38,278 nt of DNA. Origin: a virus (Duplodnaviria; Caudoviricetes). A program made the position numbers and the translations under genes. Below the pieces are notes generated by a model. It was not told the DNA's origin, searched no databases, and worked only from the letters and a program-made list of their open reading frames with translations. The stretch covers positions 1-38,278 of the IMG/VR virus record IMGVR_UViG_3300038520_001418, one strand, 5' to 3'. Of this stretch, positions 1 to 38,278 are shown piece by piece; the stretch's first letter is position 1, and each line of letters begins with the position of its first letter.

Positions 1-93
1 CTATACAAGGAGCAACAAATCATCCTTTAATGTTTGTAACTAATAACAGTGAAAAAATGAGGTTAGATAGCTCTGGTAATTTAGGAATTGGCA
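1..93 (+). repeat. 93-bp exact direct repeat of 34662-34754
   Basis: Direct comparison: ctatacaagg...ggaattggca is identical in both places. Confidence 0.95.
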
Positions 94-2162
94 TAACTTC
101 GCCAAGTTCTTATAATAGTGGATCAGATAATTTAGTTGTTGGTGGGACAAGTGGTGACAACGGAATAACAATAGCTACAGGTACAACCAATGGTGGTTTG
201 CTCGCATTTGCTGACGGAACTTCTGGCAATGCTGCATATCGTGGTTACATACAATACGATCATAATACTGACTTTTTAGCTGTAGGATCTGCTGGCTCAG
301 AACGCATGAGGATTGATAGCTCTGGACATCTATTAGTGGGTACAACTGATAACAATGTAGCAGATAATTCTGGTACATCTAACAGTGGTTTTAACGTAAG
401 AAGTTCAGGTCGTGTTCTTATTGCTGAACCACAAAATGCAGGGCTTTGGGTAAATCGTTTAGGAGATGATGGTGATATTGCAGTTTTTCGTAAAGATGGT
501 ACTACTGTAGGGAGTATTAGAGGTGATTCAGGTGAAATATCAGTATCTTCAAGTGGTGGGGCGCATTATACATTTGAAGGCAGTGCATTTTATGGTTCAG
601 ATGAAGATAGAGATTTAGGAAAATCTAACAAGCGTTTTAAAGACCTCTACCTTACTGGAAAAATTACTGGAGCAACTCAAGTTACCCAAGATGTGAATAC
701 ATCTAGCCTTGCACTTGCTGGTGGCACAGACAGTAATGTTGGTGCAAACATGATAGTATATGGTGGTTCGCATTCATCATTAGCTAGCGTTGTAAGGTTT
801 CGTAATGGTAGCACAGACACTGCTAGGATAGATAGTTCTGGTAATGTATTGGTGGGTACTACATCATTAACTACAGGTACATTAGGTAGTTCAAATACGT
901 TTTTAGAACTTTCGGCTGGTACAAATAATGGCTCTGGAACTTTAATTTTATCAAGAAACACAACTACAGATGATAACGAAGTAGGTGGGGTAAGATTTGC
1001 TAATCAAAACAATGGAGATGATGATGGATTAGATGCAGACGGTAAATTGATTGCTGCAATTAGTGCAAGATTACAAACAAGTGATAGTAATGCTGGTGAT
1101 GATAGTGGAGGACATTTAGTTTTTTATACAAAACCTGAAGCTGGTAATTATGCAGAACGCATGAGGATAGATAGCAATGGTGACGTTCAAATTGGAACAA
1201 ATCTCAGTAGTGGTGCAAAGCTAACACTATATGGGTCAGATGCTGCTACAACTTTTCAGGGTTCAACAACTGGTACAGGATCGGCTAATGGTTTTACAGT
1301 TGGAAATAATGGTATTGTGAATACTTTTGTTTGGAACTATGAAAATGGACACATGCAATTTGCTACCAATAACACAGAACGCATGAGGATAGATAGCTCT
1401 GGTAATTTATTGGTGGGTACGACCGATACAAGTCTTTACAACAATTCTGGTTCTGGAGAAGGTTTATCATATTTTCCAAGTCAATTTTTAACAGTTGCCA
1501 CATATCAGCAAGAAACAGCTATTTTTAATAGATTATCAAATGATGGAACGATTGTTCAGTTTCGCAAAGATGGTGCTACTGTGGGGATTATTGGGGTGGG
1601 TGGCTCATCTGCACAGCCAGTAATAGGCAGTAACAATGCAACTGCAGGTGGAACTGCGGCAGGTCTTAGATTTGATCGTGCAAACAATTCTATTCAACCT
1701 TGGAATGTTGTGTCAAATGCTTCAGCTGACGACACCATTGACCTTGGATATTCTTCTATTCGTTTTGATGACATATACGCTACTAACGGAACAATCCAAA
1801 CATCAGACGAGAATGAAAAACAAGATATAGCATCTATGACTACAGCAGAATTAGCTGTGGGTAAGCGTTTATCAACATTATTTAAGACCTTTAGATGGAA
1901 AAGCAAAGTCACAGAAAAGGCAGACAAAGCTAGAACACACTCTGGTATTGTTGCTCAAGAAGTTAAGGCAGCTTTTGAAGCAGAGGGTTTAGATGCTACT
2001 AAGTATGCTTTGTTTTGCAGTGACACTTGGACAAATGATGATGGTAAAGAACAAACAAGGATGGGTGTTAGGTATCCAGAATTATTAAGTTTTATTGCAA
2101 GTTATAATGAAAGCAGATTTACAGCAATAGAAGCAAGATTAGCTAAATTAGAAGGAGGATAG
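3..2162 (+). CDS. Tail fibre, C-terminal part (5'-truncated), ending in an intramolecular chaperone (peptidase S74-like) domain
   Basis: Frame is open to the window edge. Repeated ERMRIDSSGNxxVGTT motifs; DDIYATNGTIQTSDENEK cleavage-type motif; HSGIVAQEV, GVRYPEL and a terminal coiled coil. Confidence 0.9.
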   Translation: MQGATNHPLMFVTNNSEKMRLDSSGNLGIGITSPSSYNSGSDNLVVGGTSGDNGITIATGTTNGGLLAFADGTSGNAAYRGYIQYDHNTDFLAVGSAGSERMRIDSSGHLLVGTTDNNVADNSGTSNSGFNVRSSGRVLIAEPQNAGLWVNRLGDDGDIAVFRKDGTTVGSIRGDSGEISVSSSGGAHYTFEGSAFYGSDEDRDLGKSNKRFKDLYLTGKITGATQVTQDVNTSSLALAGGTDSNVGANMIVYGGSHSSLASVVRFRNGSTDTARIDSSGNVLVGTTSLTTGTLGSSNTFLELSAGTNNGSGTLILSRNTTTDDNEVGGVRFANQNNGDDDGLDADGKLIAAISARLQTSDSNAGDDSGGHLVFYTKPEAGNYAERMRIDSNGDVQIGTNLSSGAKLTLYGSDAATTFQGSTTGTGSANGFTVGNNGIVNTFVWNYENGHMQFATNNTERMRIDSSGNLLVGTTDTSLYNNSGSGEGLSYFPSQFLTVATYQQETAIFNRLSNDGTIVQFRKDGATVGIIGVGGSSAQPVIGSNNATAGGTAAGLRFDRANNSIQPWNVVSNASADDTIDLGYSSIRFDDIYATNGTIQTSDENEKQDIASMTTAELAVGKRLSTLFKTFRWKSKVTEKADKARTHSGIVAQEVKAAFEAEGLDATKYALFCSDTWTNDDGKEQTRMGVRYPELLSFIASYNESRFTAIEARLAKLEGG

Positions 2163-2163
2163 C

Positions 2164-2499
2164 ATGGCGGCAAAATGGACAATCGTAAACACAGAGTATG
2201 ACGTTAAAGGGTCAAAAGGTACTAATCAGATTACCACTCTTCATTGGGAATGCACAAACAGTGAGGATGTTACAACGGATGGCGAAACTGTAACGCATAG
2301 TGGTAGAGTTTATGGCTCAATAGGTATACCAGAACCATCAGGTACGTTTATTGAATACGCAAAAGTTACAGAGGAGCAAGCGAAAAAATGGTTACTTGCA
2401 GTGATCGGTGATGAACAAGTTAAAGTTTATGAGGATAGCGTAGCTAATCAAATTGCCTTAAGCAAAACTCCCACACAAGGAAGTGGTAAACCCTGGTGA
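2164..2499 (+). CDS. Small tail-fibre-associated (assembly/chaperone-type) protein; paralog of 36390-36701
   Basis: MAAKWTIVNTEYD...GSGKPW is shared with the paralog; both directly follow a fibre gene. Confidence 0.75.
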   Translation: MAAKWTIVNTEYDVKGSKGTNQITTLHWECTNSEDVTTDGETVTHSGRVYGSIGIPEPSGTFIEYAKVTEEQAKKWLLAVIGDEQVKVYEDSVANQIALSKTPTQGSGKPW

Positions 2500-2669
2500 C
2501 AGAAATAGATGACATAAGACGATTGCGCTCCGATTTCGAGATGTATCGAGCCGTCAATGATGAAAGACTTGAAACTTTAACGAAAGCTATCAAACGCTTA
2601 GAAATGATCCTAATCGGTTCAGCTGGCTCAACAATCCTATTATTAATCTCCCTAGTTATTAGATCTTAA
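2496..2669 (+). CDS. 57-aa coiled-coil protein with C-terminal TM helix (lysis-cassette membrane protein); not in ORF track
   Basis: GTG start overlaps the upstream TGA; MTEIDDIRRLRSDFE...MILIGSAGSTILLLISLVIRS; fills the gap exactly. Confidence 0.7.
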   Translation: MTEIDDIRRLRSDFEMYRAVNDERLETLTKAIKRLEMILIGSAGSTILLLISLVIRS

Positions 2670-2670
2670 A

Positions 2671-3159
2671 ATGCTAGATCCAGCTACCATTGCAGCTGCT
2701 GTAAGCGTTAGTACAGCAGCCTTTAATAATTTGAAAAAAGCTTTTGCAATGGGGCGCGATATTGAGCAGATGGGGTCTGATCTTTCAAGATGGATGAAAG
2801 CATCAAGTGATATAGATAATGCAGTAAAGTCTTGTAAAAACCCACCTTTTTACAAAAAGATGTTGAGTGGTGATAGCGTTGAAGAAGCTGCCATGAAAAG
2901 TTTGGTTGCACAAAAGAACTTAGAAAAGCAACGATATGAATTGCAACAATATGTAAAGTTTAAATTTGGTGTTAAAGCCTGGGATGATTTGCTTAAGATG
3001 GAAGGTACCATAAGAAAGCAAAGACAAGAATTAATTTACAAAAGACAAGAGCTACAACAAAAAATTATTGAAGGTTTATTTGTAGTTATTCTTTTTTGCT
3101 CAATCATAGGCTTAATCTTTTTTGCTATCTGGCTAAAGAAACAACAGAGCCAAACATAA
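2671..3159 (+). CDS. Membrane-anchored helical protein
   Basis: Helical/coiled-coil body with C-terminal hydrophobic segment GLFVVILFCSIIGLIFFAIWL. Confidence 0.75.
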   Translation: MLDPATIAAAVSVSTAAFNNLKKAFAMGRDIEQMGSDLSRWMKASSDIDNAVKSCKNPPFYKKMLSGDSVEEAAMKSLVAQKNLEKQRYELQQYVKFKFGVKAWDDLLKMEGTIRKQRQELIYKRQELQQKIIEGLFVVILFCSIIGLIFFAIWLKKQQSQT

Positions 3160-3248
3160 TGCACATTCTTATCATCATTCTTTTAGTATTTTTAGCCTAC
3201 TATGAGGTTGCCCATTGGTGGAAACCTTGGTGGTTGCATTTGGAGTAA
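3159..3248 (+). CDS. 29-aa hydrophobic peptide; not in ORF track
   Basis: TAATG overlap with the upstream gene; MHILIIILLVFLAYYEVAHWWKPWWLHLE. Confidence 0.5.
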   Translation: MHILIIILLVFLAYYEVAHWWKPWWLHLE

Positions 3249-3251
3249 ATT

Positions 3252-3449
3252 ATGGCACAGACGTTTATAGATAATTACAAGATTTTTCCTAGGCTTATGA
3301 TGCTTGTGGTTACTATTCTTACTTACCAGAGCGTTCATTGGTATATGGCATTAGAAGATCCAACCATACAACAAAGTGGATTAGTATCTGTTTGTATGGG
3401 TGCTTTAACTGGTTGCTTTGGTATTTGGATGAATGGTGAAAAGAAATGA
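3252..3449 (+). CDS. Two-TM small membrane protein (holin-like)
   Basis: Two hydrophobic helices, GGAG RBS, lysis-cassette position. Confidence 0.65.
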   Translation: MAQTFIDNYKIFPRLMMLVVTILTYQSVHWYMALEDPTIQQSGLVSVCMGALTGCFGIWMNGEKK

Positions 3450-3802
3450 TACTTACAGCTATAAAAATGATTGGCTCTCTTGCTACATCTTGGATGGATG
3501 GCAAAGTACAAACACAAAAGATAAAAGCAGAGATACAAAAGAAGCAACTAACAGGTGAAATAGATTGGGATATAGAAGCTATCAAAGCTACACAATCAAG
3601 CTGGAAAGATGAATGGATTACCATATTGCTATCAATACCTTTTCTTCTTTGCTTTATAAATGACACGACAAGAGAGATGGCATTTGCTGGTTTCCAAGCA
3701 TTAGAACAAGCACCAGCATGGTATACATATTCTTTTGGAGTTGTGATAGCTGCATCATTTGGTATTCGATCAGTAACTAAATTTTTTGGAGGTAAAAAAT
3801 AA
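3446..3802 (+). CDS. Putative holin (3TM, GTA-holin-like)
   Basis: SSWKDEW...SFGIRS pattern, TM segments, basic C-terminus, directly upstream of the endolysin. Confidence 0.7.
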   Translation: MILTAIKMIGSLATSWMDGKVQTQKIKAEIQKKQLTGEIDWDIEAIKATQSSWKDEWITILLSIPFLLCFINDTTREMAFAGFQALEQAPAWYTYSFGVVIAASFGIRSVTKFFGGKK

Positions 3803-4311
3803 TGAAAGAAAACTTTGATAAATGTTTAGAAATGATTTTGCATCACGAAGGAGGATATGTAAATCACCCAAAAGATCCAGGTGGCGAAACAAATCTTGGC
3901 GTAACTAAAAGAGTTTATGAAGAGTGGGGCGGTCAAAAAAATATGAAAGATTTAACAGTAGAAGATGTTGCGCCCATCTACGAAAAAAATTATTGGGGTC
4001 GTGCTAAGTGTGATCAACTTCCATCTGGATTAGATTTAGCTGTATTTGATTGGTCAGTTAACAGCGGTGTAGGCAGAGCAGTTAAAAAATTACAAAAGAT
4101 GATTGGCACTGTAGCAGATGGTGGTATTGGGCCTAACACATTAAAAACACTTGAAGAGTATATACGCCATCATGGATTAGAAACAACGATTGAAAATTAC
4201 AAAGATATTAGACAGGCGTTTTATCGTAGTTTATCTACTTTTAATACTTTTGGAAAAGGCTGGACAAGAAGAAACAACGAAACATTGGAAGCTGCATTAA
4301 AGATGATTTAA
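3802..4311 (+). CDS. Endolysin, glycoside hydrolase family 108 with peptidoglycan-binding C-terminus
   Basis: HEGGYVNHPKDPGGETNLGVT catalytic motif; FDWSVNSG; ADGGIGPNTL; FGKGWTRR. Confidence 0.93.
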   Translation: MKENFDKCLEMILHHEGGYVNHPKDPGGETNLGVTKRVYEEWGGQKNMKDLTVEDVAPIYEKNYWGRAKCDQLPSGLDLAVFDWSVNSGVGRAVKKLQKMIGTVADGGIGPNTLKTLEEYIRHHGLETTIENYKDIRQAFYRSLSTFNTFGKGWTRRNNETLEAALKMI

Positions 4312-4331: not shown

Positions 4332-4359
4332 AGAGCCACTTATGTGGCTCTTTTTTTTT
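4332..4359 (+). terminator. Intrinsic terminator after the endolysin; the hairpin also borders the array transcript arriving from the other side
   Basis: AGAGCCAC-TTAT-GTGGCTCT followed by a T run. Confidence 0.85.
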
Positions 4360-4363
4360 ATGC

Positions 4364-4643
4364 AAAACGAAACTCAACACAACGAAACGGAACCTAACCG
4401 AACAGAACATACCATTACCGACTTAACGGAACTAAACACTACGCAACTGAACCCAACTTTACATAACATAACCGCCTCAACAAAACACATCGAAACTGAA
4501 CGCAACTTAACGTAACATAACCGCCTTAACACAACTCAACTCAACCAAACCTAACGGAACACAACGGTACTCAACGTGACCGACTTAACAGAACGTAACT
4601 GAACCGAACCTAACGAAACGCAACATAACGTAACATAACCGAC
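4364..4643 (-). ncRNA. Pentamer-repeat array: five units of G(T/G)CG-(GTT-NN)9-11; putative guide-RNA array
   Basis: 52 pentamers counted by hand, 45 with exact GTT. Units 4643-4585, 4584-4526, 4525-4477, 4476-4423, 4422-4364. The repeat structure is directly visible; the RNA role is inferred. Confidence 0.8.
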
Positions 4644-5162
4644 TTACGCTGCTTCTTCCTTAACTGTTTTAGCTTTTAGTTCTTGAAGGATGCTATCTAT
4701 TTCACTAACATCGACATTTAATAAAGAACAAGTTCCTAAATATCTTTTTTGCCAAGATTTTAAATCACGCAAAGCTTGTAAAGCTAATTCTGTCATTGTA
4801 TCTGTTTCTTTAACATCAACCGATACGTAACCACCACCATTGGCTCTATTATTAATAGGAGAAATAAGTGATGGTACATCAACGACTTCAACTTTTAAGT
4901 TTTCTATTTTAGATGGTTCAGGTATTTCAGATATATTAATTTTAATTCTAAGACCTGTAACAAACTGTCTAGCCATATTTTCTCTATGTTTGTCTGCCAT
5001 TTCTTCATCAGACGCACCAAAAAAAAGATTGTAAACTTTATGATCTGTTTGATTTCTTAACCAATCTACAAATTCGGAAGGAACATAGATGTTCCTCCCT
5101 GTTTTATTTAGATAGTCATCAATAATATCTTGCCTATCTTGCTTTGTAAAACGAAGTGACAT
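4644..5162 (-). CDS. 172-aa protein of unknown function, coupled to the RAMP gene
   Basis: TAATG overlap at 5162; its stop codon abuts the array. Confidence 0.85.
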   Translation of the reverse strand: MSLRFTKQDRQDIIDDYLNKTGRNIYVPSEFVDWLRNQTDHKVYNLFFGASDEEMADKHRENMARQFVTGLRIKINISEIPEPSKIENLKVEVVDVPSLISPINNRANGGGYVSVDVKETDTMTELALQALRDLKSWQKRYLGTCSLLNVDVSEIDSILQELKAKTVKEEAA

Positions 5163-5917
5163 TATGCAGCCCTCCTTATAACTTCTTCTTTATAAAAGTC
5201 ATAAAGTTCTTGGGTTTCTGCATCATTTATAATGATGTCTTTCATCGCTTTTTCTTGAGCTTTTCTACCAATCTTAGTTCTAGTTTGCCAAACATCTTTA
5301 AATTGGTCATTACCTTCAAAATCAACAAACCAAGATCCAAAGTTTCCTTTACCTTTTTCTTGCCTGTTATCACCAATACCGCAAATCATCCCTGCATTTT
5401 GCAACAGAGCTACAATAGAATGCTGTGAAAGTGTTGGGGTAACAAATGCAATGTCAACTTCTGCACACCATTCATTGACAATAGCTCTTGTACGAATGTC
5501 AGGTGTTTTATTCATATCACTAGACCTGACAACATCCATATAAAGCTTTGGGGTTCCCCAAATAGATATTTTTTGTTGAGGTAAAAAAATCAAACGATTA
5601 ACAGATGTTTTGTTTACACCACTTGTTTCAAGGGCAGCCGTTGCCATAGCCCCCTTTACACCAGAAGCAGGAAAACCTAATAGGGTATCTCCATCTGCCA
5701 TCTTATGAATAGATGATCTAAACTCTAGTTCTGGATTATGCTTTATGTCTTTCTTCTGTGCAGCTGTCTTACGACCAGCACCAATAAGCAAATCTCTCTT
5801 AGCTTTTTCAGCCATACGATTAAAAATAATAGGGGTATGCCCTATCATTCTTAAAGTAATTCTACCTTGCTTGAGCGCATCAATAGTTACATTTGTATTT
5901 GTATTTTTTTTAATCAT
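5162..5917 (-). CDS. RAMP-superfamily (Cas7/Csm3-like) RNA-binding protein
   Basis: N-terminal strand ITLRMIGHTPII; FPASGVKGAMATAA (compare the RAMP motif IPGSSLKGALR); C-terminal Gly-rich loop GIGDNRQEKGKGNFG. ATG at 5917 preferred because of the GGAG RBS. Confidence 0.75.
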   Translation of the reverse strand: MIKKNTNTNVTIDALKQGRITLRMIGHTPIIFNRMAEKAKRDLLIGAGRKTAAQKKDIKHNPELEFRSSIHKMADGDTLLGFPASGVKGAMATAALETSGVNKTSVNRLIFLPQQKISIWGTPKLYMDVVRSSDMNKTPDIRTRAIVNEWCAEVDIAFVTPTLSQHSIVALLQNAGMICGIGDNRQEKGKGNFGSWFVDFEGNDQFKDVWQTRTKIGRKAQEKAMKDIIINDAETQELYDFYKEEVIRRAA

Positions 5918-31489: not shown

Positions 31490-34400
31490 ATGACAGTTTC
31501 ATCATCAACAAACTCTGTGATACTCAGTGCCAATGGTACAGACCATAGTTTTGCTTTCACTTTTAAGATTTTTGCAGCAAGCGATCTTAAAGTCATTGTA
31601 AGAAGTGCGGCTGGCGTTGAAACGGTCAAAACATTAAACAGTGAATATATTATTGCTGATAGCTCTGTGGGAAATGCCAATGGGGGCAATGTTCTATTTA
31701 AGTTTAATACTGGCACCTCAAGCGATGCTCATTACAGCACAACTGATTTTCGCCCTGCAAATGGTGAAAAGGTTATTTTAAGAAGAGAGCAGCCACAAAC
31801 ACAAGGTTTAGACCTTGTTGCTAATGATCCTTTTCCAGCAGAAAGTTTTGAAGAAAGCTTAGATAAATTGACCTTTATGGTTCAAGATGTACAAGAAGCT
31901 GTTGACAGATCTTTAAAATTTAGTCGTTCTAATTTATTAGATAGTTCTGGATCTCAAATAAGTTCTACTTATGTCGATATTGAAGAAGATACCACAGCTA
32001 GGGCAAACAAATTATTATCGTTTGACAGCACAGGTACACCCATTGCTACACAAGAGGTAGGTACGGCTAAAGGAGATTGGGCTGCTAGCACTGTTTATCA
32101 AGAGCGTGATATTGTAAGAGATACATCAACTAATAATTTGTTTATTGTAAATACGGCTCACACAAGTAGTGGTTCAGAACCATTAACAAGTAACGCAAAT
32201 AGCTCAAAATATACTATAATTCTTAATAATGGAGCTTACACCAACATAACTGCTTCTGGTGTTATCACTGGATCAACTATTGAGCCAACTGGAGATACAT
32301 CCTCTGGAGATAATGCTGCAATTGGTTATACAAGTGATGAAGGTTTGATTTTAACAGGTCAAGGGGCTGTTTCTGATATTACATTTAAAAATGATGTTGA
32401 TGTAACAGTTTTTACTATTCCAACAGGCACAGATGATATTTTATTTCCAGATAATGCAAAAATATTAATTGGAAGTGGTAGTGATCTAAGAATTTATCAC
32501 GAAAGTGATAATTCTTATATTGATGAAAGGGGTTCTGGTAGGCTCTATATTTTGTCAGATACACAAGTTGAGATAGGTAATGCTGGAAATGCAACAAATG
32601 CTAGGTTTAATTCTGGTGGCTCTTCAATTCTTCATTACAACAACAGCAATAAATTTGAAACATCAGACACAGGAGCTACACTTACAGGTGCATTAACTGT
32701 TTCAAGTCATGTTGTAACAAGTGAAATTCAACTTACATCTGGGCCACAACCAGATGTGAGATTTGAAAGCACATCAGGTGGAGATAGATTTGATCTTGGT
32801 ATTGATGCAACTAGTGTTTTCCGATTAAGAAATATCAATGATAGTCGAGATGATTTAAAATTCGATGGAAGTGGTGTTGCTACTTTTGGTGGGGCTGTAA
32901 ATGTTACAGGCGCATTAACTGTAACAGGTGGGATTGCAGATAGTAATCTTAACACAATTACAACAGCTGACAAAGTATCTGGTGCTGCTATTCAGATTGA
33001 TGGTGCAACAGATGGAACAAGTATCACTATAGTTGATGCTGACAAGCTTTTAATTGATGATAATGGTACAACAAAATATATTAATGCAAGTCAATTAAAT
33101 AGTTATATTTCCGCTGCTGCAAGTGCTGTTGCTGCTGATAACATTACAGCTGGTGATGCAGCAGTAACAATTACAACTACATCAGGTAATATTACAATAG
33201 ATGCTCAAGCTAATAATAGTAATATTATTTTTAAAGGTACAGATGGTTCTGTTGATACCACTTTCTTAACTATTTCTGGTGCTGATGCTGGGCAAGCAAC
33301 ATTTAATGGTAAAATTGTAGCAGATGCTGGTATTGATGTTGATGATTTTAACATTCATAATGATGCTATAACTAAATCCGCTGGTAATTTTTCATTAAAT
33401 GCAGATAGTAATATTTTATTGAATACGCACTATGATGGCTCTACATCTGGTGGCATAATTGCTTTAAAAGAAAATAATACAAATTTTGGTCAGCTTCGTA
33501 ACAACAGTGGCGAGTTACAAATAAAATCAGGGGCTTCAGATACGACAGCTTTATCATTTTCTGGTGCTGATGCTACTTTTTCTGGTACAATAAATACAAC
33601 AAGTACTAATAAACTACAATTTGGTGATAGCGGCACATATATTCATCAATCTGCTGATGGTGTTTTAGATTTAGTTTCAGATACAGAAATTGAGATTAAT
33701 GCTACGACAATTGACGTAAATGGTAATTTAGATGTAAGTGGAAGTGCTACTATTGGTAGTGATGTAACATCTGCAAGTGGTAACTTTGTTACAACAGGTT
33801 CTAATATTGCTCTAAAACATTCAAGCGGAGAAAACTTTTTTACAGCTACCAAAGATGGTGCTTCTTTCATATATCACGACGCTTATGGTATTTTAGGTAC
33901 AGTAGCTACAAATGCTGTTGCTATAGGCACGACAAACGGTAATACATTTACATTAGATACTCAAAGTACCTTTTTGGAAATAGGTAATAGTGGAATTGGC
34001 GGTGGTACAGATGCTGGTACTTTAGTTCTTTCCGCAACATCTAATGCAAATGATGAAAGAATTGGTGATATACGTTTCGCTAATGTAGCAAATGCTGATG
34101 ATGATGGCACAGATGCTGATGGTAAAATGGTTGCTAGAATCCAGACTAAATCTGTTACCTCTGACAGTAATGCTGGTGATGATAGTGGTGGTACGATTGT
34201 CTTTAGCACCAAACCTGAAGCTGGCAGCATTGCTACTGCTTTGACACTTGGATCAGATCAATCAGCTACTTTTGGTGGTGATGTAACTTTTACTGGTGCA
34301 AACTACAATGTTGTTTGGGATAAGTCTGATAATGCCCTAGAGTTTGGAGATAATGCTAAAGCTATTTTTGGTGCAGGTGGTGACTTAGAAATTTATCACA

Positions 34401-36388
34401 GTGGAAGTCATAGCATAATTAAAGATGGAGGAACTGGTAATTTACAGATTAATGCAGGAAACTTTAATGTTAATAATGTTGCAAATTCTGCTAATATAAT
34501 TGTTGGAAACGATGGAGGTGCAGTTAAGCTTTTTCATAATGGTAACAACAAACTAGAAACAGCATCTTTTGGTGCTACTCTTAGTGGTTATGCTTATATT
34601 ACGGAAAATTCAGGCACTACACAACTTTATCTAAGATCAAATTACAATAGCACTGGGCCAGCTATACAAGGAGCAACAAATCATCCTTTAATGTTTGTAA
34701 CTAATAACAGTGAAAAAATGAGGTTAGATAGCTCTGGTAATTTAGGAATTGGCACAACTTCTCCACAACAACTTCTACATGTAAGTGCAAATAATCCGGG
34801 TGGTAAGATTAGACTTGAGATGGGTCAAAGTGGTGTAGCAAATGGAGATGTTACAGGTGAAATTCAGTTCTATCATAATGACTCTAGTGGTGCAGGTGTT
34901 AACGCTGATATTAAAGGTATTTGTACGAGTGCCATAGGTGCAGGTGCTTTGACATTTGGCACAGGAACAACTTCTACAACAGAACGCATGAGGATAGATA
35001 GTAATGGAAGAGTTGGTATTGGAGAAAGTAGCCCAGATACTCTTTTGCACATTTCCGATTCTGTTTCTCCAACAATACGAATTACAAACACTGATCCAAC
35101 AGCGAGTGTGGATCAAACTATTTCAGAGATTCAGTTTGAAGGATCAGATAGTTCTACAAATGCTGATGGTATTAGAGCAAAAATTACTGCCTTATATGGT
35201 GGGGTTGGTGGATTTACTTCATTGCAGTTTTTTACAGCAGGGGAAAACACTGAAACCCTTTCAAGAATTTTAGATTTACATTCAAATAGAGCAACCATCA
35301 ATGAAGATGGTGCAAATATTGACTTTCGTGTTGAGAGTAGTGGCAGTGAAAATATGCTATTTGTGGATGCAGGTAATGACAGAGTTGGTATTGGCACGAA
35401 CAGTCCTACTTTTAATTTAACTGTGCAAAGAAATGATAATGAAACTTATAGCACAACAGGTTTTCCTAATGGCACAGGACATTTTTTTAAAAAGAATAAT
35501 TCTGGTACTGCCAATCAATATAGCAGTATTAGACTGCAAGTTACGAATGATAATGGTTCTTCAAATGCTCAAGCGTGTATCACAGCTATAAAGACTTCTG
35601 CTAGTACTCATGCAACTACACTAGCATTTCAAACAAGACAATCAGGAGGGTCTGTTGCTGAAGCTTTTAGAGTGGATGATAGCCAAAGAGTAATTGTTGG
35701 TAAGACTAGTAATTCAAGCTCTACAGCAGGTACAACACTTTATAGCAATGGTAAAATAGAAGGAGTTAGAGATGGTGATGTAGTGCATTCATTTAATAGA
35801 CTCAGCTCAAATGGCACTATTCTATCTTTTCAAAAAGACGGAACTACTGTGGGAAGTATTAATTCACGGGCAAGTTTAGTAACTACTATTATACTTGATC
35901 CTAGAAGTAGTGGATTTGGAATTACTGGAACAGGTAACGCCTTTTTTCCCACCGACGAAACAGGAAATAGCACTGATGGCACGAAGGATGTTGGTACATC
36001 TGGAAACCGCTTTGATGACATTCACGCAACCAACGGCACAATTCAAACATCAGATAAAAACGAAAAAAATACTATAGTAGACAGTGATTTAGGTTTAGAT
36101 TTTATAAAAAGACTTTCTCCAAAAAGTTATAAATTTAATAATAAAACTAGAACGCACTATGGATTAATTGCTCAAGATGTTGAAACTGTATTATCTGACA
36201 TAAGTAAATCAAGTACCGATTTTGCAGGTTTTATTAAAGATGATATTAGTGAAGACAAAGATGGTAGTCATTATCGTTATGGTCTTAGGTACACTGAATT
36301 AATTGCACCTATAATTAAAGCATTGCAAGAAGCAAATGCAAAAATAGAAACACTAGAAATTGAAGTTGCAAAGTTAAAAGGAGAATAA
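31490..36388 (+). CDS. Main tail fibre with T7 gp17-like N-terminal anchor and C-terminal S74-like chaperone
   Basis: NG...F.F.F.IF...DL; LDKLT..VQ anchor; GIGT.SP repeats; QTSD, YGLIAQDVE, LRYTELIAP. Confidence 0.92.
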   Translation: MTVSSSTNSVILSANGTDHSFAFTFKIFAASDLKVIVRSAAGVETVKTLNSEYIIADSSVGNANGGNVLFKFNTGTSSDAHYSTTDFRPANGEKVILRREQPQTQGLDLVANDPFPAESFEESLDKLTFMVQDVQEAVDRSLKFSRSNLLDSSGSQISSTYVDIEEDTTARANKLLSFDSTGTPIATQEVGTAKGDWAASTVYQERDIVRDTSTNNLFIVNTAHTSSGSEPLTSNANSSKYTIILNNGAYTNITASGVITGSTIEPTGDTSSGDNAAIGYTSDEGLILTGQGAVSDITFKNDVDVTVFTIPTGTDDILFPDNAKILIGSGSDLRIYHESDNSYIDERGSGRLYILSDTQVEIGNAGNATNARFNSGGSSILHYNNSNKFETSDTGATLTGALTVSSHVVTSEIQLTSGPQPDVRFESTSGGDRFDLGIDATSVFRLRNINDSRDDLKFDGSGVATFGGAVNVTGALTVTGGIADSNLNTITTADKVSGAAIQIDGATDGTSITIVDADKLLIDDNGTTKYINASQLNSYISAAASAVAADNITAGDAAVTITTTSGNITIDAQANNSNIIFKGTDGSVDTTFLTISGADAGQATFNGKIVADAGIDVDDFNIHNDAITKSAGNFSLNADSNILLNTHYDGSTSGGIIALKENNTNFGQLRNNSGELQIKSGASDTTALSFSGADATFSGTINTTSTNKLQFGDSGTYIHQSADGVLDLVSDTEIEINATTIDVNGNLDVSGSATIGSDVTSASGNFVTTGSNIALKHSSGENFFTATKDGASFIYHDAYGILGTVATNAVAIGTTNGNTFTLDTQSTFLEIGNSGIGGGTDAGTLVLSATSNANDERIGDIRFANVANADDDGTDADGKMVARIQTKSVTSDSNAGDDSGGTIVFSTKPEAGSIATALTLGSDQSATFGGDVTFTGANYNVVWDKSDNALEFGDNAKAIFGAGGDLEIYHSGSHSIIKDGGTGNLQINAGNFNVNNVANSANIIVGNDGGAVKLFHNGNNKLETASFGATLSGYAYITENSGTTQLYLRSNYNSTGPAIQGATNHPLMFVTNNSEKMRLDSSGNLGIGTTSPQQLLHVSANNPGGKIRLEMGQSGVANGDVTGEIQFYHNDSSGAGVNADIKGICTSAIGAGALTFGTGTTSTTERMRIDSNGRVGIGESSPDTLLHISDSVSPTIRITNTDPTASVDQTISEIQFEGSDSSTNADGIRAKITALYGGVGGFTSLQFFTAGENTETLSRILDLHSNRATINEDGANIDFRVESSGSENMLFVDAGNDRVGIGTNSPTFNLTVQRNDNETYSTTGFPNGTGHFFKKNNSGTANQYSSIRLQVTNDNGSSNAQACITAIKTSASTHATTLAFQTRQSGGSVAEAFRVDDSQRVIVGKTSNSSSTAGTTLYSNGKIEGVRDGDVVHSFNRLSSNGTILSFQKDGTTVGSINSRASLVTTIILDPRSSGFGITGTGNAFFPTDETGNSTDGTKDVGTSGNRFDDIHATNGTIQTSDKNEKNTIVDSDLGLDFIKRLSPKSYKFNNKTRTHYGLIAQDVETVLSDISKSSTDFAGFIKDDISEDKDGSHYRYGLRYTELIAPIIKALQEANAKIETLEIEVAKLKGE

Positions 36389-36389
36389 A

Positions 36390-36701
36390 ATGGCAGCAAA
36401 ATGGACAATTGTAAATACAGAGTATGACATCAAAGGGTCAAAAGGTGATAATCAGATAACCACTCTTCATTGGGAGTGCAAAGATCAAGATGGTGATCAC
36501 TCTGGTAGAGTTTATGGGTCAATAGGTATACCTGAACCAAGTGGAGATTTTATTGAGTACTCAAAGGTAACACATGAGAACTGTGTGACATGGGCAAAAG
36601 CTATAATTGGAAGTGACGAAATTAAGGCTTGTGAGGATAATGTAGCCAACCAGATTGCATTAAGTAAAGCACCCACACAGGGTAGTGGAAAGCCTTGGTA
36701 A
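36390..36701 (+). CDS. Tail-fibre-associated protein; paralog of 2164-2499
   Basis: High visible identity to the paralog. Confidence 0.75.
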   Translation: MAAKWTIVNTEYDIKGSKGDNQITTLHWECKDQDGDHSGRVYGSIGIPEPSGDFIEYSKVTHENCVTWAKAIIGSDEIKACEDNVANQIALSKAPTQGSGKPW

Positions 36702-38278
36702 ATGAGTAGAGCCAGAGACATTGCTAATCTACAAAGTAGTAAAATTACTGCTGATTTTGGTATAGATATTGATAATATCACTATTGATGGCACAGAGATA
36801 GATTTATCTAGTGGTAATCTTACAATAGATGTGGCAGGAGACATCATACTTGATGCTGATGGTGGTGATATTTTCTTTAATGATGCAGGTGTTACTTTTG
36901 CTAAATTTAGTAATGTTTCAACAGATTTTGTAATTAAATCAATCGCACAAGATAAGGACTTGATATTTAGAGGTAATGATGGTGGTTCTGAAATAACTGC
37001 AATGACTATAGATATGTCGGAAGGTGGTAAAGTAGGTATTGGCACAACTAGTCCTACAGTTCCCCTTCATATTGATATAGGTTCAGACAATAATGCAATT
37101 TATGCACAATCCTCTGACCAATTCTGTAATATAGGGTTAATAGATGGCAGTGGTTCTGGAAAAATTATTATGGACAGTGGTAAATTATTGTTTACGACTG
37201 GTGGTGATAGTTCTACAAGTTTTACTGGCTCATCTACGAGAGTAACAATTGATACATCTGGTAAAGTAGGTATTGGCACAACTAGTCCTACCTATGCTTT
37301 AGACGTTGAATCAAACAACTCTGGTGGTCTTGTTGCCGAGTTTGTAAATACAGCAACTAGTATACCTCAAGGCGTTCTAATAAATTTTCCAAACAACACA
37401 CCAAACGTAACCAATCGTTTCTTCTTAAAAATGGAAGATAGCACCAGTGTTAAAGCTGAAATAAACACTACTGGTGGTGGCTACTTTATGGGTAATGTTG
37501 GTATTGGCACAAGTAGTCCTATTGCTGATTTATCAATTGTTGATAGTAGCACTGGTACTGGAATTGAAATTCAACCAGAAATAGCAACAGGCGAAAACAG
37601 AATTACAAATTACGACAGGGTTGAAAGTGCTTACAAAAAATTTCGTTTAGATGCAAGTGAACATAATTTTTATATTAGTGGTAGTAATAAAGTAACAATA
37701 GATAGCTCTGGTAATTTATTGGTGGGTACAACTTCTGTTGGTGTTGCATCCTCAAGTAGTGTAGAGGGTATTCAAATTGCACCTACCACATTATCTGTTG
37801 CAAGAAGTGGAGCTAGTGTTGCTTTTTTTAATAGACAAACAAATAATGGTAGTATTGTTGAGTTACGCAAAGATGGCTCTTCTATAGGTAGTATTGGAGT
37901 TAACACTAGTGATTATCCATTTATTGCTAATCCTGCAAGTGGTGGTGCAGGTATTGCAATGGGTGCAGGCACTGCAGTTATTCCAACAGACAACACTGGA
38001 CAGCATTCTGACAACACAAAGGATGTAGGAGCGTCAAGTGTTCGTTTTGATGATGTATTTGCAACTAATGGTACAATTCAAACATCAGATAAAAACGAAA
38101 AACAAGACATAGCATCTATGACCACAGCAGAACTAGCTGTAGGTAAGCGTCTATCAACTTTATTTAAAACTTATAGATGGAAAGATAAAGTTACAAAAAA
38201 GGCAGACAAAGCTAGAACACACTCTGGTATTATTGCTCAACAAGTCAAGGAAGCTTTTGAAGCAGAGGGTTTAGATGC
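36702..38278 (+). CDS. Second tail fibre (3'-truncated); missing from ORF track
   Basis: MSRARDIANLQ...; VGIGTTSP repeats; RFDDVFATNGTIQTSD; runs off the window end inside the chaperone domain. Confidence 0.85.
   Translation, partial: MSRARDIANLQSSKITADFGIDIDNITIDGTEIDLSSGNLTIDVAGDIILDADGGDIFFNDAGVTFAKFSNVSTDFVIKSIAQDKDLIFRGNDGGSEITAMTIDMSEGGKVGIGTTSPTVPLHIDIGSDNNAIYAQSSDQFCNIGLIDGSGSGKIIMDSGKLLFTTGGDSSTSFTGSSTRVTIDTSGKVGIGTTSPTYALDVESNNSGGLVAEFVNTATSIPQGVLINFPNNTPNVTNRFFLKMEDSTSVKAEINTTGGGYFMGNVGIGTSSPIADLSIVDSSTGTGIEIQPEIATGENRITNYDRVESAYKKFRLDASEHNFYISGSNKVTIDSSGNLLVGTTSVGVASSSSVEGIQIAPTTLSVARSGASVAFFNRQTNNGSIVELRKDGSSIGSIGVNTSDYPFIANPASGGAGIAMGAGTAVIPTDNTGQHSDNTKDVGASSVRFDDVFATNGTIQTSDKNEKQDIASMTTAELAVGKRLSTLFKTYRWKDKVTKKADKARTHSGIIAQQVKEAFEAEGLD

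Follow-up and report, generated by a model that had tools for sequence, protein, structure and literature searches.

Our analysis has shown that three abutting elements lie on the minus strand of the window, which here means the whole stretch of viral DNA analysed (38,278 nucleotides; IMG/VR record IMGVR_UViG_3300038520_001418). From the sequence and its ORFs, they were read as a vipr ORF, a vap ORF and a pentamer array (Table 1). The coordinates, 5917 to 4364, agree with the gap-free layout given in the initial annotation (a RAMP-like ORF, TAATG, a 172-aa ORF and an array after its stop codon). The two ORFs share a TAATG overlap at 5162 and, judging from this overlap, vap is translationally coupled to vipr. 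The context of the vap stop codon (GCG-TAA-GTCG) itself resembles the unit boundary GTT-AA-GTCG.

Table 1. Features of the VIPR locus and its flank in the window
Feature	Position	Strand	Basis or remark
vipr gene, 251-aa RAMP	5162..5917	-	ATG 5917 to TAA 5162; PDB 36pp match, model, Foldseek, PHROG 4652
vap (accessory) gene, 172 aa	4644..5162	-	ORF reading; mostly helical; no known family
Pentamer array, five back-to-back units	4364..4643	-	starts at 4643, the base after the vap stop
Unit 1, GTCG + 11 pentamers	4585..4643	-	predicted target: antisense strand of a 60-70 aa phage gene, HMO-2011 gp26 homologue
Unit 2, GTCG + 11 pentamers	4526..4584	-	no target found
Unit 3, GGCG + 9 pentamers	4477..4525	-	weak candidate: T7-like scaffolding-protein-like gene
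Unit 4, GGCG + 10 pentamers	4423..4476	-	guide family in 6/10 close loci; family target likely T7-type SSB gene start
Unit 5, GTCG + 11 pentamers	4364..4422	-	no secure target
Hairpin (8-bp) + T-run	4332..4360	+	terminator-like for convergent endolysin gene
Endolysin gene, convergent with array	3802..4311	+	Glyco_hydro_108 E 2e-31

The window record is 100% complete by CheckV and belongs to a podovirus with a capsid gene 66-67% identical to those of HTVC010P-type pelagiphages. No Cas1 or tyrosine integrase was found in its genome, PADLOC gave no Cas match in the 37 ORFs scanned, and neither an Rfam match nor class 1 CRISPR features (repeat-spacer array, Cas1/Cas6/large subunit) were found in the window. 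The earlier statement that cas genes and canonical CRISPR are missing from this genome was thereby borne out. Three tail-fibre-like genes of the window (30-2499, 31490-36701 and 36702-38278) have common C-terminal and internal blocks, and a small gene downstream of them is duplicated; 1-104 is 98% identical to 34662-34765. These repeats may represent either a fibre-variation cassette or an assembly effect.

The initial annotation also let the array end at a hairpin, and here a correction is needed. Since the T-run of this hairpin (4332-4351) is on the plus strand, the element is better seen as resembling a terminator for the convergent endolysin gene; relatives L001, L002, L004, L005 and L007 lack it 3' of their arrays. 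A role as conserved guide tail was ruled out by the strand of the T-run and by the absence from these five relatives; the hairpin may additionally bound the array transcript. An SF2 helicase gene lies 3' of the array in L001, L002, L004 and L005, but not beside the array in the window, L003 or L006. Just past the arrays of L003 and L006, on the opposite strand, is an ORF (190 aa, partial, and 393 aa, respectively) that we take by eye to be integrase-like. With an endolysin gene as array neighbour in the window, a helicase gene in other relatives and an integrase-like ORF in L003 and L006, the module appears to occupy a variable junction.

VIPR, an RNA-guided system related to CRISPR, has been known since 2026 (10.64898/2026.04.26.720920), and its mechanism is taken here from two preprints (10.64898/2026.04.26.720920; 10.64898/2026.04.26.720927). 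By sequence and model, the 251-aa product is a stand-alone RAMP homologous to Vipr. Its sequence matched one PDB entry, the SUSP1 Vipr 36pp (E 9e-4; by profile, E 5e-4), and PHROG 4652 (E 9e-14). The fold check proposed in the initial annotation, structure prediction plus Foldseek, came out in favour of a RAMP: the model (pLDDT 81.8) had Cas7/Csm3 subunits of types VII and III as its best matches (E 2e-5). The protein consists of an RRM, a thumb with R142/R144, a G-loop (CGIGDNR, 179-185) and C-terminal helices. In the 36pp sequence alignment, SUSP1 residues R138, C173, D177 and R179 correspond to R144, C179, D183 and R185 of the window protein, while W178, the Trp that stacks on G2, corresponds to N184. 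According to the available part of the structural report, D177 of SUSP1 reads G1, R138 together with W178 keeps G2 in place, and the pocket for Y3 is lined by C173/R179 (10.64898/2026.04.26.720927). The Vipr family comprised 1242 proteins among 1547 candidates, with 31 viral and 36 genome loci, and R144 was invariant in 63/63 aligned proteins. One Sphingobium contig carries two separate vipr loci (L055 and L064), ~34 kb apart.

Searches of Pfam, NCBIfam, PADLOC and the PDB gave no match for Vap, and a fold search with its model (pLDDT 68.6) found nothing at E<=0.001. Its 20 homologues and its Atlas look-alikes, viral proteins without names, add no family. SUSP1 Vap and the window Vap were unrelated in every search run.

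The array consists of five units of 59, 59, 49, 54 and 59 nt, each formed by a 4-nt step, G(T/G)CG, and 9-11 pentamers. GTT begins 45 of the 52 pentamers, in line with the proposal that GUU-NN is a variant of GGY-NN, and the canonical GGY is not what this array carries. Of the motif GTTNNGTTNNGTTNNGTT, in which GTT recurs four times at 5-nt spacing, 22 copies were counted, every one within 4366-4639; 100 shuffles gave none. No other scaffold of the set is as clean: T makes up 96% at pentamer position 2. Unit lengths follow 5n-1 in the window and in nine close loci, meaning that guides overlap by 1 nt. Folding of the RNA of units 1-4 was no better than that of shuffles (z -1.0 to 0.6), and a conserved structured 3' tail per guide was not found, as the units abut with a 4-nt step and the terminal hairpin is not conserved. 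Low-depth contigs from two marine metatranscriptomes covered only short vap and vipr pieces and nothing of the array, although such contigs cannot reveal small RNAs.

Nine viral loci with Vipr proteins 83-98% identical to that of the window share its layout but carry mostly other guides, and guides differ even among relatives that are 94-98% identical. Across the 56 units of the 10 close loci, internal pentamers have G in 459/479, T in 426/479 and T in 438/479 cases at positions 1-3, with positions 4-5 near-even and all 16 dinucleotides in use. Homologous loci had been named as the place to look for 5-nt arrays, and an array was indeed found beside a Vipr homologue in 57 loci. More distant loci form a continuum from GGC through GGT/GTC to GTT, and from this the register can be set to G1-U2-U3-N-N. 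In 43/56 units the first NN begins with A, yet it still matches the target, and the last NN is AA or GA in 37/50 closed units; such a boundary constraint may bias the choice of target. A guide common to L004, L005 and L007 (L004:271, L005:340 and L007:340) contains an internal step of 6 nt; a 4-nt step after it brings the pentamers back into register.

This common guide spells what we take to be the catalytic motif of tyrosine integrases, with each NN giving codon positions 1-2. The 1-nt-skip pattern of its L005/L007 form (19 fixed bases) had 24 exact matches in IMG/VR, all 24 at TTMRYAHLAP of tyrosine integrases, where by our estimate under one would be expected by chance. PF00589 was found in two of the matched integrases. 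Many of the integrase-bearing targets are marine T7-like phages with RNA polymerase, T7 SSB, primase, polymerase A and T7 terminase genes. In the available part of a survey, integrases are common in marine Autographiviridae (625/1143 populations; PMC12361551).

A further test used 644 kb of loci picked solely through the integrase, with 1000 shuffles and skips of 0-3. Four unrelated guides matched the T7-type terminase gene, antisense, at 21/22, 20/22, 27/30 and 19/20, each with 0/1000 shuffles, while their best scores at other skips were 18/22, 16/22, 20/30 and 16/20. Guide L001_45 matched the terminase at 17/20 (11/1000 shuffles) and L001_266, the L001 form of unit 4, matched the SSB start at 17/20 (23/1000). 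Among 45 distinct guides, seven matches of at least 90% occurred at skip 1 (three by construction) versus 0, 1 and 0 at skips 0, 2 and 3, and at all of these skip-1 sites the skipped base is the codon wobble position. Leftover mismatches mostly decode to conservative changes (I/V, M/V, M/L). The resemblance to VIPR proposed in the initial annotation thus holds on several counts: the SUSP1 Vipr match, the RAMP fold, arrays at 57 loci and phage genes found when NN is decoded at skip 1. Evidence for this code is strong for guides of relatives and moderate for unit 1 of the window. Targets are matched unevenly by the last NN, which is mostly AA, and not by the boundary GG, and a unit would therefore encode ~16-20 nt across a 24-30 bp footprint. 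The idea of a discontinuous guide was upheld in this way, with its length of about 16-22 nt amended.

In the window itself, unit 1 gave the best result. It matched a 67-aa gene, antisense, at 17/20 on G007, a score that 13/1000 shuffles reach; the resulting p of ~0.013 fails correction for 45 guides when taken alone. Scores of 16/20 were obtained on G006 and on HMO-2011, a SAR116 phage whose gp26 (56%) is the only cultured-phage copy of the gene. The gene family has the motif R[LM]WRLEAM[IV]M, and 71/120 fetched family sites score 17-18/20. A relaxed pattern found about 470 stretches, but since it was relaxed after two family members were known, these indicate a widespread motif and not an independent match. 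Of 80 unit-1 loci with long flanks, 52 were nearest HMO-2011 and 23 nearest a T7-like genome. The terminase targets turned up once more in loci fetched via unit 1 (21/22, 21/22, 19/20 and 28/30). No exact 20/20 target of unit 1 was found in the metagenome scan.

The other units of the window gave less. Unit 4 scored 14/18 on the integrase-picked loci, at chance (866/1000 shuffles); it had no match in 5 phage records, and its relaxed form had 50 matches in metagenomes, none in SSB. Unit 3 matched a T7-like scaffolding-protein-like gene at 15/18 in 2/47 records, not significant given one match for the control pattern. Unit 5 had a single 17/20 site, on L239, that was not repeated elsewhere, and with up to 3 mismatches there was no match for unit 2 in 50 phage records or for unit 5 in 47. 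Altogether, no significant target was obtained for 35/45 close-clade guides, window units 2, 3 and 5 among them. Self-targets were not found, the best match to the own genome being 13-14 of 16-20, and guides compared with their own and sister VIPR loci gave no skip enrichment.

Several candidates were set aside. Exact 16-base cores of units 1, 2 and 5 had 1, 19 and 7 matches, none above 19/22 or in a fitting phage, and single matches of 20/20 (L035) and 18/18 (L037) were judged to be chance. The unit-4 family pattern had 21 IMG/VR matches, eight of them on a single conserved intergenic hairpin that resembles a terminator and occurs in AT-rich phages whose genes are unrelated; these were dropped since no other guide matched the 3-kb flanks beyond chance. 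The hairpin, a near-identical 45-nt intergenic element after a 300-450 aa gene, is found in L038, L039, L044, L045, L048 and L051-L053, AT-rich phage contigs that are otherwise diverged. Guide L006_487 decodes to LRHTFATNLL, presumably integrase-like, and in 401 Alphaproteobacteria it had 4 matches versus 4 for the control. L006_246 and L003_124 decode to candidate integrase-like motifs.

Other observations concern the phages involved. The T7-like target L135 carries, at 2584-3651, a Rieske monooxygenase gene 74% identical to HMO-2011 gp61, and we infer that a SAR116-like host may be common to the window phage and its T7-like and HMO-2011-like targets. A GGC-type guide of a Microvirga prophage VIPR (L075:4776) matches the vipr 3' end at L074:4720 (17/18, skip 1), which is likely a case of VIPR against VIPR. 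Two guides of the marine W184 clade, L026:3853 and L023:4411, spell a DEAH helicase motif when decoded. Their matches to the SF2 helicase 3' of the array in L001, a close relative of the window phage (L001:11936-11972), are 17/20 and 15/18; one VIPR phage may here target another.

Based on the RAMP fold, the Vipr homology, the array, the guide turnover, the 1-nt-skip code and the target classes, all established by computation, we consider it very probable that this is a phage VIPR with a staggered, tail-less GUU-NN array, whose guides are predicted to lead a Vipr filament to core genes of its T7-like and HMO-2011-like rivals. These genes would likely be silenced, with the filament blocking transcription and Vap as helper. 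By analogy with SUSP1, the operon would be transcribed together with early genes. One Vipr subunit would then sit on each pentamer, bury G1 (D183), U2 (R144, with N184 in place of the stacking W178) and U3 (C179/R185), and present NN. The 4-nt G(U/G)CG step puts the pentamers out of register and would for this reason mark where one filament stops and the next begins, with or without cleavage. The filament would wrap target dsDNA into an R-loop triplex that blocks transcription, the gapped dsDNA site lying in a co-infecting or resident rival phage. Vap would be a helper, a non-catalytic DNA-binding factor as in SUSP1. At the integrase, terminase and SSB motifs a guide reads nothing but codon positions 1-2, so that many rival genomes would come within reach of a single guide. 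The initial annotation had named rival phages or host genes as what might be silenced; the predicted targets belong to rival phages, and the host genes have, as far as found, dropped out.

With this in mind, we weighed other outcomes of target recognition. It seems unlikely that Vipr merely locates DNA and Vap cuts or nicks it, so that the target is destroyed and not repressed. VIPR types III-V do encode predicted nucleases or helicases (10.64898/2026.04.26.720920), some targets fall within late genes such as the terminase, where a roadblock may be weak, and an SF2 helicase lies 3' of the array in four relatives; Vap, however, has no nuclease family or fold match, and the helicase gives the impression of a common phage gene, as neither the window nor L003 or L006 has it next to the array. 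That the complex targets RNA, as Csm3/Cas7 filaments do, is highly improbable. The top structural matches are type III and VII backbone subunits, and SUSP1 Vipr is able to pair with ssRNA according to the available part of its report (10.64898/2026.04.26.720927), but matches occur on both strands: terminase and unit-1 guides are antisense, whereas integrase and SSB guides are mRNA sense and cannot pair with mRNA, which counts against RNA targeting. A decaying window copy, in which an inherited VIPR keeps guides that have drifted off target, would fit a supported target for unit 1 only and a unit 4 that has diverged from better-matching versions in relatives. We regard this as quite unlikely, as both ORFs are intact and 94-98% identical to those of relatives, the scaffold is the cleanest in this set, and the databases hold few of the rival genomes.

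We were also curious about the origin of the GUU scaffold. In the 43 loci with F/W/Y at position 184, the T fraction at pentamer position 2 falls as locus GC rises (Spearman -0.86). With 85-96% T, eight N184 loci exceed this trend by 3-4 residual SD, but they form one clade and are not independent; two further N184 loci stay on the trend (L008, 63%, z 0.8; L009, 72%, z 1.8). L081, an alphaproteobacterial locus of 65% GC with E184, has a GTC-NN array at 4690-4810, directly after vipr, with 83% T at position 2 versus 14% expected. In a quick tree of 51 loci, L081 (a long branch) and the N184 clade lie on separate branches. The count leaves aside loci without a parsed array, L010-L012 (copies of L013), and L074 and L088 (<8 pentamers), and the array parser favours G-K-Y pentamers. 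With two independent events only, these sequence comparisons are suggestive of a link between changes of residue 184 and U2, and AT drift accounts for part of the effect. Recognition of the keto group, be it that of G or of U, by the invariant R144 would explain the G-K-Y continuum.

It is conceivable, at somewhat less than even odds in our judgement, that GUU reflects neutral AT drift within a G-K-Y scaffold, with R144 reading either keto group and the protein binding GGY guides equally. The GC trend itself, an AT-rich W184 clade that already has 55-66% T, the modest T of L008 and L009 and the invariance of R144 are all in keeping with this, while the eight N184 loci of a single clade and L081 argue against it. 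We more tentatively, and with considerable doubt, consider a joint reading in which loss of the G2-stacking aromatic re-coded GGY to GUY at least twice and produced an orthogonal, tail-less VIPR; the register-breaking 4-nt step alone would delimit guides, and HTVC010P-like marine podoviruses would silence integrase, SSB and terminase genes of T7-like and HMO-2011-type phages while being immune to hijack by GGY solo guides.

The window locus is a VIPR member of the staggered kind, with neither the canonical GGY nor the type II tail. The RNA-guided nature put forward initially is supported, but 'candidate new system' would say too much, as VIPR, the staggered layout and non-canonical motifs are already known from 2026 preprints. 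Staggered arrays with 1-nt overlap are described in the founding preprint, which also lists the alternative consensus NNNGG, YNNNG and NNNNG; the target searches in it concern types II, III and V, with none named for staggered arrays (10.64898/2026.04.26.720920). Similar to staggered VIPR, the window has vipr and one vap, no CRISPR, 5n-1 units and a phage carrier; guides of 9-16 pentamers there compare with 9-11 here, with a fixed trinucleotide and hypervariable NN, and the constant is GGY there and GUU here. As the founding preprint admits 'related consensus' motifs, GTT marks a variant and not an exclusion from VIPR, and as YNNNG formally fits T-T-N-N-G, the GTT motif may already sit in its fig. 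S17. With type II SUSP1 VIPR the window shares RRM, thumb and G-loop with R138, C173, D177 and R179 kept, and, from the available parts of the sources, a wobble-base 1-nt skip, both strands, no self-target and an integrase/recombinase target (10.64898/2026.04.26.720927; 10.64898/2026.10.15.759431). In contrast, SUSP1 Vipr has 202 aa and W178 whereas the window Vipr has 251 aa and N; SUSP1 guides are separated by a ~40-nt pseudoknot tail whereas window guides have none; and SUSP1 targets are satellites whereas those of the window group are full T7-like/HMO-2011-like phages (terminase, SSB, integrase). The available passages of the Evo-PIN/COMPASS preprint give 21 non-canonical clusters, naming GAC, CAC, WGT and TGH (10.64898/2026.10.21.760802). 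These share a fixed non-GGY trinucleotide beside a Vipr-like fold, and the passages contain no targets and no residue covariation. 'GTT' has 0 occurrences in the COMPASS main text (10.64898/2026.10.21.760802), and GTT/GUU as a VIPR motif was not found in the literature texts searched, although figures and supplements may hold it. Class 1 CRISPR Cas7/Csm3 of types III and VII share the RAMP fold, but have a repeat-spacer array, Cas1, Cas6, Cas10 and contiguous spacers; the window has none of these and a 5-nt gapped code.

In conclusion, VIPR tested so far is the GGY, tailed type II form only, and the present work adds sequence evidence that a non-GGY scaffold in a staggered layout keeps the 1-nt-skip code, with named natural targets. 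Residue 184 may set scaffold preference, which points to a possible route towards an orthogonal programmable repressor with guides of 50-60 nt. Fast guide turnover among 94-98% identical phages without Cas1 is useful for the question of how gapped guides are acquired. With these targets, VIPR biology is no longer confined to conflict between phages and satellites but takes in competition among widespread groups of marine phages. If the re-coding of GGY to GUY were true, phage groups that are the most abundant in the ocean would be at war with one another by RNA-guided means.
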